From Bacteroidales bacterium (GTDB lineage: Bacteria > Bacteroidota > Bacteroidia > Bacteroidales > UBA10428), in the NCBI GenBank assembly GCA_046481675.1, contig JAWOJJ010000147.1, positions 16,842 to 80,841 of the forward strand: a stretch of 64,000 nucleotides of DNA. Reading direction: 5' to 3'. Shown piece after piece: positions 45,176 to 63,978 of the stretch. Position 1 is the first letter of the stretch. Every line of letters starts with the position of its first letter. Made by a program: the position numbers and the translations under genes. Below the pieces are notes generated by a model. It made no database searches. It had not been told where the DNA came from and saw nothing but the letters and a program-made list of their open reading frames with translations.

Positions 45176-47115
<1,940 letters not shown>

Positions 47116-47163: not shown

Positions 47164-47235
47164 GTACGGACAGGTCGCGACCTGTCCGTACGCGACCTGT
47201 CCGTACGCGACCTGTCCGTACGCGACCTGTCCTTA
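47164..47235. repeat. 28-bp perfect palindrome whose right arm is reiterated 4x (15-bp period)
   Basis: GTACGGACAGGTCG|CGACCTGTCCGTAC (47164..47191), then G+CGACCTGTCCGTAC twice more and a fourth copy with one mismatch. The last unit overlaps the stop codon of the response regulator (47233..47235). Confidence 0.9.
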
Positions 47236-47922
47236 CGATTCAATCAATTTAAATCCCTTCCCGTGTACATTGATGATCTGCACCCTCGGATCGTCTCTCA
47301 GGTACTTTCTCAGCTTGGCAATATAAACATCCATACTGCGTGCATTGAAGTAATTGTCATCCACCCATATGGTCTTTAGCGCAAAATTCCTGTCGAGCAC
47401 CATATTCTTATTCGCACACAATAACTTCAACAGATCGGCTTCCTTGGTGGTGAGCTTTTGCTCGTCTTTTCCAAACTTCAGGAGCTGGGTATTCGGCAAG
47501 AACATATAATCGCCAATCTTATATTCATTTTGATGGGCCCCGGTGGCATCCTTTTTCGTACGGCGTATCACGGCTTCAACCCTGAAAAGCAGTTCCTCCA
47601 TGCTGAAAGGTTTGCTGATATAATCATCAGCTCCCGCTTTGAAGCCTTCAATAACATCCTCCTTCAGCGACTTTGCGGTTAGAAAAATAATCGGAATCTC
47701 CGCGTTGGTCATTCGGATTTCCCTGGCCAGTGTAAGTCCGTCTTTTACAGGCATCATCACATCCAGGATACAAAGGTCATAATGGCTTTTTACAAAGCTC
47801 TTATAAGCCTTTTCTCCGTTAATAAACCAATCCGCATCATAGGATTTAACCAGGAGGTACTCTCTCAACAGCATCCCCAGGTTCTCATCATCCTCGGCAA
47901 GTAAAATTTTAATCTTTTGCAT
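47233..47922 (-). CDS. Response regulator transcription factor (OmpR/PhoB winged-helix type)
   Basis: Receiver domain (DDENLG...LDVMMP...K) plus a C-terminal winged-helix domain. It overlaps the kinase gene by 14 nt. Confidence 0.9.
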   Translation of the reverse strand: MQKIKILLAEDDENLGMLLREYLLVKSYDADWFINGEKAYKSFVKSHYDLCILDVMMPVKDGLTLAREIRMTNAEIPIIFLTAKSLKEDVIEGFKAGADDYISKPFSMEELLFRVEAVIRRTKKDATGAHQNEYKIGDYMFLPNTQLLKFGKDEQKLTTKEADLLKLLCANKNMVLDRNFALKTIWVDDNYFNARSMDVYIAKLRKYLRDDPRVQIINVHGKGFKLIES

Positions 47923-62987: not shown

Positions 62988-63056
62988 ACCTGGCAAACCC
63001 GTTTTCAAGAGTAAATGGTCCCAGAAGATCAGTTGAAATGGGAGGAGGATGGATTT
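62988..63056 (+). pseudogene. Decayed 3'-end fragment of a second RayT-like transposase gene
   Basis: ACCTGGCAAACCCGTTTTCA (62988..63007) matches 63710..63729 at 19/20. GTTGAAATGGGAGGAGGATG (63032..63051) matches 63793..63812 at 20/20. Order and orientation are the same, and the fragment frame hits a stop (TWQTRFQE*). Confidence 0.5.
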
Positions 63057-63214: not shown

Positions 63215-63826
63215 ATGCCTGAAAAATTCCGCAACAAATACCGCATACCATCCACACGTCTTGTAAACTGGGATTACCGGTGGAATGCGCCCTATTTCAT
63301 TACCATTTGCACAAAACACCGGGAACATTTTTTCGGCCGGATTGCGGATGGGATAATGGAATTGTCGGAAATTGGGAAAATTGTTGAATCCGAATGGATA
63401 AAAACATATGAAATGCGCCCTGATATGAATTTACAGATGGATGAATTCGTGGTAATGCCCAATCATTTCCATGCGATTATCATTATTGGCGAAAATGAAT
63501 TTAATCAAAATGAATTGGGACACGAAACGGAATGTGGGGCGGGGTTTTGTAGAGACGCAATGCATTGCGTCTCTACCGCAATGCATTGCGTCTCTACGGT
63601 ACAAAAACCAATAAACCAATTTGGCCCACAATCAAAAAACCTGGCATCCATCATCCGGGGATTTAAAACCGGGGTAACAACCAGGGCGCGGCAATTCTGT
63701 TCTGATTTCACCTGGCAATCCCGTTTTCACGACCACATCATCCGCGATGATGATTCATTCCAGAGAATTCAAAAATACATCCGTGAAAATCCGTTGAAAT
63801 GGGAGGAGGATGAATTTTATAAATGA
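63215..63826 (+). CDS. REP-associated-type tyrosine (Y1/HUH) transposase, IS200/RayT-like
   Basis: 203 aa with HUH motif VVMPNHFHAIIII and a C-terminal region WQSRFHDHIIRDDDSFQRIQKYIRENP holding the candidate catalytic Tyr. The N-terminus KYRIPSTRLVNWDY is typical of this Bacteroidota family. Confidence 0.8.
   Translation: MPEKFRNKYRIPSTRLVNWDYRWNAPYFITICTKHREHFFGRIADGIMELSEIGKIVESEWIKTYEMRPDMNLQMDEFVVMPNHFHAIIIIGENEFNQNELGHETECGAGFCRDAMHCVSTAMHCVSTVQKPINQFGPQSKNLASIIRGFKTGVTTRARQFCSDFTWQSRFHDHIIRDDDSFQRIQKYIRENPLKWEEDEFYK
63549..63597 (+). repeat. 28-bp perfect palindrome GTAGAGACGCAATG|CATTGCGTCTCTAC inside the transposase ORF, right part duplicated (21 bp, in frame)
   Basis: Read directly. 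Units CGCAATGCATTGCGTCTCTAC at 63556..63576 and 63577..63597 encode AMHCVST twice. Confidence 0.9.
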
Positions 63827-63870
63827 ATTGGCACATCATTTCACCAGTATTGACACCACCAAAACAAAAA

Positions 63871-63889
63871 ACGCCTGAAATTCAGGCGT
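63871..63889. terminator. Hairpin between the transposase gene and tRNA-Gln
   Basis: ACGCCTGAA-a-TTCAGGCGT followed by TTGATTTGTGTTTTTG, a weak T tract. The GCCTGAA/TTCAGGC core is the same as in the tRNA-His terminator. Confidence 0.4.
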
Positions 63890-63905
63890 TTGATTTGTGT
63901 TTTTG

Positions 63906-63978
63906 TTGCCCCGCTAGGAATCGAACCTAGAGTCTTCTGATCCAGAGACAGACGTGTTGCCAATTACACTACAGGGCA
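63906..63978 (-). tRNA. tRNA-Gln (CTG)
   Basis: Hand fold of the minus strand gives acceptor TGCCCTG/CGGGGCA (U1:A72, as in bacterial tRNA-Gln), D arm GTGT/ACAC, anticodon loop CTCTGGA (CTG) and T arm CTAGG-TTCGATT-CCTAG. No CCA is encoded. Confidence 0.85.

Follow-up and report, generated by a model that had tools for sequence, protein, structure and literature searches.

A perfect 28-nt palindrome lies within the coding sequence of an intact HUH/Y1 endonuclease gene in a 64,000-nt stretch of a Bacteroidales bacterium genome (contig JAWOJJ010000147.1; the whole stretch is hereafter called the window), and we conclude that it is probably the enzyme's own substrate-type repetitive extragenic palindrome (REP), carried in frame in a tolerant loop of the protein, with one arm duplicated by slippage. 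The gene occupies 63215–63826 on the plus strand, encodes 203 amino acids and is related to the REP-associated tyrosine transposases (RAYTs, or TnpA_REP); the palindrome, GTAGAGACGCAATGCATTGCGTCTCTAC at 63549–63576, has the form of a "double-foot" REP. Both the phenomenon and the exact sequence are already known. The classification of the TnpA_Y1 family by Quentin, Siguier, Chandler and Fichant (BMC Genomics 2018;19:475; PMC6006769) describes REPs within tnpA_REP genes as a hallmark of subclass 2.4, and its Table S1 lists this very 28-mer as a subclass 2.4 double-foot REP, with protein ABB28784.1. An earlier note on this DNA, made from the sequence alone, had implied that the arrangement was new, an implication that the 2018 publication removes. 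As an observation, then, the intragenic REP adds little to the literature; what reaches beyond the consulted parts of PMC6006769 is the quantified covariation at the center of the dyad, the frozen synonymous sites, the near-equal use of two reading frames and a second insertion site within the gene.

A double-foot REP within the open reading frame

A scan for inverted repeats delimited the dyad at 63549–63576, where its arms, GTAGAGACGCAATG (63549–63562) and CATTGCGTCTCTAC (63563–63576), are 100% complementary with zero spacer. It encodes C112–T121 (CRDAMHCVST), and the protein around it reads ...FCRDAMHCVSTAMHCVSTVQ..., between the NHFH motif (residues 83–86) and the catalytic tyrosine, Y188. 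The sequence and the open reading frame (ORF) are in this respect as the earlier note had described them. The GTAG foot, which agrees with the GT[AG]G tetranucleotide of the GTAG superfamily of REPs, is here paired with a 3′ CTAC, which gives the double-foot form; in classical REPs, GTAG is unpaired and lies 5′ of the stem. Because the dyad is perfect, both DNA strands fold to the same hairpin.

The right 21 nt of the dyad are tandemly duplicated in frame (63556–63597, plus strand; 2 × 21 nt at 100% identity, unit CGCAATGCATTGCGTCTCTAC, family D1), again in agreement with the earlier reading. The two copies lie at 63556–63576 and 63577–63597, and the second unit encodes AMHCVST a second time. 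In the minimum-free-energy structure, the duplication yields an extended hairpin spanning 63549–63597, with 21-nt arms (63549–63569 and 63577–63597) and a 7-nt loop, and folding of 63535–63612 gives −29.8 kcal/mol as DNA (z = −10.9) and −43.9 kcal/mol as RNA (z = −9.2). With up to two mismatches allowed, the 14-nt arm matches three places only in the 64 kb, all of them at this element, a number reached by 0 of 100 shuffles of the window. Scanning all perfect inverted repeats, we found two zero-loop 14 + 14 palindromes in the whole window, the one at 63549–63576 and another at 47164–47191, which is described in the last section.

The host gene encodes a RAYT-type enzyme

The gene was defined by its ORF and by end-to-end alignment with homologues, and its motifs can be read directly from the sequence (all on the plus strand). 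The HuH motif NHFH (63461–63472) fits NH[IFV]H, and its column is invariant in alignments A1 and A3. The codon of the catalytic tyrosine Y188 (63776–63778) opens YIRENP (residues 188–193), in which Y188, I189, N192 and P193 are invariant in the same two alignments; the motif fits the class 2 signature Y---NP and carries E at the fourth position, where the consensus YIxNNP has N, the consensus form itself being present in close homologues. Between these motifs, W167-Q168...D173-H174...R177 (WQSRFHDHIIR; 63713–63745) is the counterpart of the residues that contact the GTAG guide in E. coli TnpA_REP. PMC6006769 gives these contacts as W94, Q95, E100, H101 and R104, of which W94, Q95 and R104 are conserved in subclass 2.4; the set here comprises W167, Q168, D173 (E to D relative to E. 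coli), H174 and R177. When the family profile is compared with 4er8_A, WQSRFHDHIIRN in the family is aligned to WQPRFWEHAIRN in 4ER8.

Fold comparison gave a concordant placement, with 4er8_A, the E. coli TnpA_REP with bound REP hairpin, as the best match in the PDB (E = 2.2e-6), followed by the IS608 and ISDra2 transposases; 4er8, 2xm3 and 2vju were all at probability 1.00. A Pfam scan of the full protein returned only Y1_Tnp (PF01797), at 19.3 bits against a gathering threshold of 23, and the one match in an NCBIfam scan was NF047646 ("REP-associated tyrosine transposase"), which scored 63.5 bits where its cut-off is 80. Without residues 99–140, the PF01797 score becomes 23.2 bits, just above threshold, and the NF047646 score 70.4 bits, still under its cut-off. 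Since both scores rise when this loop is removed, their low values are partly due to its insertion, and because the NF047646 score lies under the equivalog cut-off, we class the protein among the RAYTs, in another subclass, and not as an equivalog of that model. Taken with the 4ER8 fold match, the NHFH, WQ and YIRENP motifs fit TnpA_REP/RAYT subclass 2.4 (Bertels group 4). PMC6006769 characterizes this subclass by NH[IFV]H, WQ and YIxNNP motifs, a median length of 194 aa, a long or double-foot GT[AG]G REP within or next to the gene, occurrence in Cyanobacteria, Bacteroidetes and various other phyla, a low copy number, about 1.5 per genome on average, and the lack of IS-like ends. The description of a REP-like GTAG...CTAC hairpin inside a RayT-type Y1 gene, with which the earlier note began, is thus upheld by motifs and 4ER8 fold and by the covariation reported below.

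The palindrome lies in a variable, disordered loop

We built an AlphaFold2 model from 20 homologues (mean predicted local distance difference test score, pLDDT, 70.8; core confident). Residues 99–140 (63509–63634, plus strand), which contain the REP, are predicted at pLDDT below 50 and are bordered by strand 84–91, which carries the HUH histidines, and by helix 143–158 (αC). The model thus agrees with the expectation that the insert is a surface loop, and the REP, being placed within this low-pLDDT segment, codes for a portion of a disordered loop on the surface of a RAYT-type enzyme that is otherwise intact. Among the 120 best homologues, the region between the HUH strand and the helix is hypervariable in length and sequence, of low complexity and rich in short repeats. 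PMC6006769 describes the same variable insertion between β3 and αC for subclass 2.4, shows it as a peripheral extension in a homology model of the subclass, and puts its heterogeneity down to short DNA repeats (Figures S6, S7B and S10).

Recurrence of the palindrome in homologous genes

A search for homologues gave 3644 matches in a 90% clustered database, which were aligned end to end, and 22,769 cluster representatives at E ≤ 0.001 in a 50% clustered library. The best 120 of the 3644 are 49–100% identical to the protein of the window, mostly 58–67%. An RD....VST pattern, mostly RDAMHCVST, is present in 98 of these 120, and two Draconibacterium proteins among them have VETQCIASL at the same place, which is the same DNA read in another frame. 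The earlier note had suggested that related proteins often contain peptides encoded by GAGACG...CGTCTC palindromes, and these counts bear the suggestion out.

We also fetched 80 genomic loci of relatives at 36–61% identity, mostly from Bacteroidota, with others from WOR-3, Cloacimonadota, Acidobacteriota, Patescibacteria, KSB1, Chloroflexota, Ignavibacteriae, Gammaproteobacteria and Sericytochromatia. Of the 80 homologous genes, 55 contain a palindrome whose arms measure 9 nt or more, usually starting 245–510 nt into the match and most often at about 290–415; the other 25 have no palindrome of that arm length, which speaks against the rival idea of a fixed site. Palindromes with arms of at least 11 nt inside homologous genes number 55. 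Most intragenic palindromes are 28-nt dyads in which the feet, GTAGAGAC...GTCTCTAC, are conserved and the inner 12-mer varies, as in GCAATGCATTGC, GCGATGCATCGC, GCCATGCATGGC, GTTGCATGCAAC and GCAAAATTTTGC, and further in AAGGCATGCCTT, AGGGCATGCCCT, GCATTGCAATGC and GCATCGCGATGC. A conserved position with a varying inner sequence is what the earlier note had proposed to look for in an alignment of homologues. The type of inner 12-mer follows the tree of the loop-deleted proteins, and the reading frame is correlated with clade, with occasional switches. In locus L011, the loop reads KNTIQSVS at the position of RDAMHCVS, and this may be the remnant of a decayed REP peptide.

Reiteration of an arm recurs as well. 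It stands beside 13 of the 157 perfect double-foot dyads in all of the locus sequence, on either side of the dyad and at intragenic and extragenic dyads alike. The intragenic reiterations have periods of 15, 21 and 24 nt (L082, L049 and L112), and homologous proteins show reiterated strings such as RDAMHCGRDAMHCVST, MHCVSTMHCVPT and GAMHCASTTMHCVST; within an ORF, such reiterations are kept only as multiples of three. The arm duplication in the window is most likely the product expected of slippage or template switching at a hairpin.

Two further observations concern other parts of homologous genes. Loci L020 and L003 are examples of the rare genes that have a second in-frame REP at a β-hairpin near residue 46, before the HUH motif (L020:10130–10157 and L003:10142–10163), a second insertion place from which it follows that REPs have entered the gene at different points. 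Homologue P0003 has a tandem duplication of about 47 aa that covers the HUH strand, with the RDAMHCVST peptide on both sides, an arrangement that suggests recombination between two intragenic REP copies.

Constraint at the level of DNA

To avoid selecting for complementarity, we located sites by their feet alone, which gave 48 sites in genes. The inner 12 nt are perfectly self-complementary in 42 of them, and each of the other six has one broken pair; by chance, all six pairs would be complementary with a probability of about 2e-4. Once the 48 sites are aligned, the paired share of pair cells is 99%, compared with 84% in shuffles, and double-sided changes occur at 8 of the 14 pairs (109 cells). 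The observed covariation score was reached by 0 of 500 shuffles, and no slid register approaches it. Even the central pair (columns 17–18 of alignment A2) conforms, being GC in 28 sites, AU in 20 and unpaired in none. The two open frames are used almost equally, RD....VST 26 times and VET....SL 22 times, and the third frame, which contains TAG, is never used.

The exact 28-mer is common to the window and seven genomes, identical at 28 of 28 nt, while the proteins are only about 60% identical. Comparison of codons in those seven genomes showed that outside the loop the same codon is used at 345 of 629 identical degenerate residues (55%), whereas the eight degenerate codons of the dyad are unchanged in all seven. 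The constraint therefore acts on the DNA and not on the protein. Together, the base-perfect conservation, the compensatory changes at the center and the near-equal use of frames suggest active maintenance of the dyad, not a decaying relic.

REPs outside the gene

We scanned the loci together with the window, 1.36 Mb in all, for palindromes outside RAYT genes, finding 89 with arms of at least 11 nt, about 55 of them of the double-foot type. Most of the extragenic double-foot palindromes lie within 2.5 kb of the gene, many within 200 nt, on one or both sides, and the flanking copies usually share the inner sequence of the intragenic copy (L003, L005, L012, L016, L018, L025, L035, L077 and L080). 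Genes that have no intragenic copy are often flanked as well: in L011, the exact 28-mer of the window stands on either side of the gene, in L079 the gene lies between two arrays, and L044, L046, L058 and L068 are further examples. In related genomes, the same or sister sequences occur outside genes at L011, L018, L012, L077, L079 and L002. This arrangement is that of a REPtron.

The earlier expectation that copies of the hairpin exist outside the gene is accordingly borne out beside homologous genes. At the locus studied here, unlike many homologous loci, neither flank holds a double-foot REP, and the 64-kb window holds no further copy. Viral contigs were also scanned for the exact 28-mer, without a match.

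Locus L002 contains an array of 5.2 copies of a 179-nt unit (L002:12081–13004), which lies 1.5–2.4 kb downstream of its RAYT gene. Each unit has one double-foot REP of the GCGATG type, preceded by a 19-nt reiteration of its left arm; the intragenic REP of the same locus is of the GCAATG type, unlike the repeat array.

Relation to known systems

Compared with subclass 2.4 as set out in PMC6006769, the locus shows no difference in kind. It shares the motifs, the length of about 200 aa, the repeat-rich β3/αC insertion and a 28-nt double-foot REP (5′ GT[AG]G, 3′ C[TC]AC), and what is specific to it is the lack of a flanking REP in the window, the extra 21-nt duplication and a decayed RAYT fragment upstream. 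The E. coli REPtron (TnpA_REP, subclass 2.2/group 2; Messing et al. 2012; Ton-Hoang et al. 2012) resembles it in the HUH/Y1 fold, the GTAG tetranucleotide, the conserved W, Q, H and R contacts and, presumably, the same chemistry on single-stranded hairpins. The E. coli REPs differ in that their hairpins are imperfect and need a bulge, their single GTAG foot is unpaired and only one of their strands is active; they are strictly extragenic and flank the gene, and the E. coli protein is without the β3/αC insertion.

Perfectly paired stems are shared with the REPs of group 3/subclass 2.5 from Stenotrophomonas and Marinomonas (Corneloup et al., NAR 2021; PMC8266576), a study whose biochemistry covers groups 2 and 3 and identifies GTAG as the guide for the choice of a CT or CA cleavage site. 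Group 3 REPs differ in having 8-bp stems, defined loops and a single foot, and in being abundant and extragenic; these groups have no reported intragenic copies. An in-frame palindrome that adds a peptide to a host protein has its likeness in intragenic GTAG/CGTC REPs and in the Rickettsia palindromic elements (Di Nocera et al., BMC Genomics 2013; PMC3733652), for which in-frame insertion is presumed to be tolerated through a loop or linker position. The host genes in that study (uvrA, uvrB) are unrelated to mobilization, whereas here the host is the presumed mobilizing enzyme itself, and insertion at the same loop recurs among family members.

The TnpA of IS200/IS605 elements (subclass 1.1) also has a Y1 HUH fold and recognizes a single-stranded hairpin beside a guide tetranucleotide. 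It differs in its Y---Q motif, its length of about 150 aa without an insertion and its occurrence in multi-copy elements with subterminal hairpins. We considered and rejected an IS200/IS605 element at this locus, given the Y---NP motif, the 203 aa with an insertion, the lack of terminal hairpins and the lack of a second intact copy in the window.

Discussion

On the reading we favor, the dyad would be the double-foot REP proper to subclass 2.4, made up of a GTAG guide, a stem of about 12 bp and a complementary CTAC. By analogy with the enzymes of E. coli, Stenotrophomonas and Marinomonas, the protein would bind the hairpin and its GTAG guide where the DNA is single-stranded, as it is at replication forks. 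Cleavage at a CT or CA close by would follow, by way of a 5′-phosphotyrosine link at Tyr188, and then strand transfer; the spread of REPs is thought to follow from such cleavage and transfer. One REP would have landed in frame in the disordered peripheral loop between the HUH strand and helix αC, where it would be tolerated because the fold does not depend on the loop and because the dyad has two open frames (RD....VST and VET....SL) out of three. It would then be kept intact as a member of a population that the enzyme recognizes, either because recognition is under selection or because it exchanges sequence with flanking copies, and the intragenic copy would have no dedicated function. The 21-nt arm duplication and the nearby short repeats would stem from slippage or template switching at the hairpin. 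Among the possibilities raised in the earlier note, the invasion of a tolerant loop by a REP-like element is the best supported, and it is also the one published in PMC6006769.

Several points weigh against this explanation. The protein is below the curated cut-offs of both PF01797 (19.3 against 23) and NF047646 (63.5 against 80). Binding and cleavage of a double-foot REP would be an extrapolation to subclass 2.4 from groups 2 and 3. With no other copy in the 64 kb, membership of a REP population is shown for related genomes only. The symmetry of the dyad spans central bases that cannot pair in a hairpin, so hairpin recognition alone is insufficient; full central symmetry points to a process that generates or corrects it, such as template switching between arms or the fusion of half-elements, the latter suggested in PMC6006769, and recognition as a duplex or cruciform may be an alternative. 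Finally, prevalence in one loop and a base-perfect 28-mer across phyla exceed what a purely neutral passenger would show, which leaves room for function.

That function could be regulatory. In the main rival explanation, the intragenic REP is a selected cis element, and a hairpin in the enzyme's own gene or mRNA is recognized, limiting expression or marking the locus. In its favor, about two-thirds of the 80 homologues, which span many phyla, have the palindrome in the same loop, as do some 100 of the closest 120 proteins; the 28-mer stays base-perfect while synonymous sites elsewhere have diverged; the message hairpin is of great stability (−43.9 kcal/mol as RNA); and the intragenic copy is the only one within the 64-kb window. 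Against this, 25 of the 80 homologues have no palindrome and what the loop of L011 contains may be a decayed remnant, the REP can also occupy another position in the gene (L020 and L003), the same sequence is found as ordinary flanking REPs, both frames and many positions within the loop are used, and regulation has the support of no experiment or published claim. We found no later literature on the function of intragenic REPs in subclass 2.4 either. On this balance, we regard a selected cis element as unlikely. The broader proposition that the intragenic REP is no passenger at all, serving either as a cis element for sensing or limiting expression or as a substrate "master copy" held in an essential part of the gene, would, if true, explain an identical 28-mer at one loop across phyla and its perfect central symmetry; we hold it to be quite unlikely. 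The dyad could also be a recombination site at which the enzyme diversifies its own loop, the repeats then arising from cutting and rejoining instead of slippage. Loop length and repeat content do vary greatly around an invariant dyad, the ...TAC foot marks the exact end of the reiterated units, in the gene as well as in the 47164 array, and the duplication of about 47 aa in P0003 is bounded by two copies of the REP peptide. Yet the loop is predicted to be disordered and, in the homology model of subclass 2.4 in PMC6006769, lies away from the DNA-binding and catalytic surfaces, with no apparent benefit from its diversity; reiterated arms are also seen at REPs outside genes and can stand to the left or to the right of the dyad, as slippage at any hairpin predicts, and the unit lengths vary and indicate no single cut site. 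We judge such diversification very improbable.

Explanations in which the palindrome itself is incidental fare worse. If RDAMHCVST were a functional peptide, for example a Cys/His metal or DNA contact, with the palindromic DNA as a by-product, its near invariance in the closest homologues would be accounted for. The same DNA, however, is read as VETQCIASL elsewhere, changes of the inner sequence are compensated on the opposite arm, the synonymous positions are frozen, the segment has a pLDDT below 50 and the same sequence also occurs outside genes; on account of the alternative frame use, the frozen synonymous sites and the disordered segment, we rejected this idea, which has scarcely any probability left. 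A chance palindrome or an assembly artifact was considered because the source is apparently a metagenome-assembled genome (P0001, "MAG: transposase [Bacteroidales bacterium]"), palindromes and tandem repeats are prone to mis-assembly, and the number of 21-nt units is assembly-based. But the same dyad stands at the same place in dozens of independent assemblies, isolate genomes included, the ORF is intact and full length, and shuffle controls exclude chance. The shuffles, the recurrence across loci and the folding z-scores led us to reject this explanation too, as one with almost no likelihood.

If the dyad is indeed the enzyme's own REP, a gene with its substrate built in would offer a compact model of the long-term pairing of domesticated transposases and repeats. 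The locus would also be convenient for testing REP recognition because both strands present the same hairpin.

Other features of the window and of related loci

The window contains one intact RAYT gene and one decayed RAYT 3′-end fragment (TWQTRFQE*...LKWEEDGF; 62988–63056, plus strand), detected as a collinear tblastn match and as two blastn stretches. The fragment has the orientation of the intact gene, lies some 160 nt upstream of it and is identical to it at 19 of 20 and 30 of 33 nt, corresponding to gene positions 496–515 and 571–603; it looks like the trace of an old duplication or rearrangement at the locus. On the other side of the gene, 43 nt past the stop codon, there is a terminator-like hairpin, AAACGCCTGAA-A-TTCAGGCGTTT (63869–63891, plus strand), which is not a REP, and downstream of it a tRNA-Gln(CTG) gene (63905–63978, minus strand).

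The other zero-loop palindrome belongs to an extragenic REP with a GTAC foot, which a repeat scan placed at 47164–47235 between the convergent genes 45481–47115 (plus strand) and 47233–47922 (minus strand). It consists of a 28-nt dyad, GTACGGACAGGTCGCGACCTGTCCGTAC (arms GTACGGACAGGTCG|CGACCTGTCCGTAC), and three more 15-nt right-arm units, the last with one mismatch; these extra units are the same right-arm reiteration as in the gene, a likeness that the earlier note had rightly drawn. At least 81 metagenome contigs contain the exact 28-mer. In eight cases the copy is within a distant RAYT gene, 29–37% identical to that of the window, and in three it is near one; the remaining copies have no RAYT in the retrieved stretch. 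The element is therefore a member of a sister REP family, and the window does not contain its enzyme. In a group 3 REP, a change of GTAG to GTAC redirects the cleavage site in vitro (PMC8266576), which makes a GTAC foot plausible for a sister specificity.

Locus L034 has a second, distant RAYT paralogue (L034:16899–17459; 35% identity) 7.5 kb from the first, and a hairpin of another kind, GATACGGGTTTGAAACCCGTATC, follows it in two copies at L034:17482–17555. Within one genome, a second enzyme would thus be paired with a REP type of its own.

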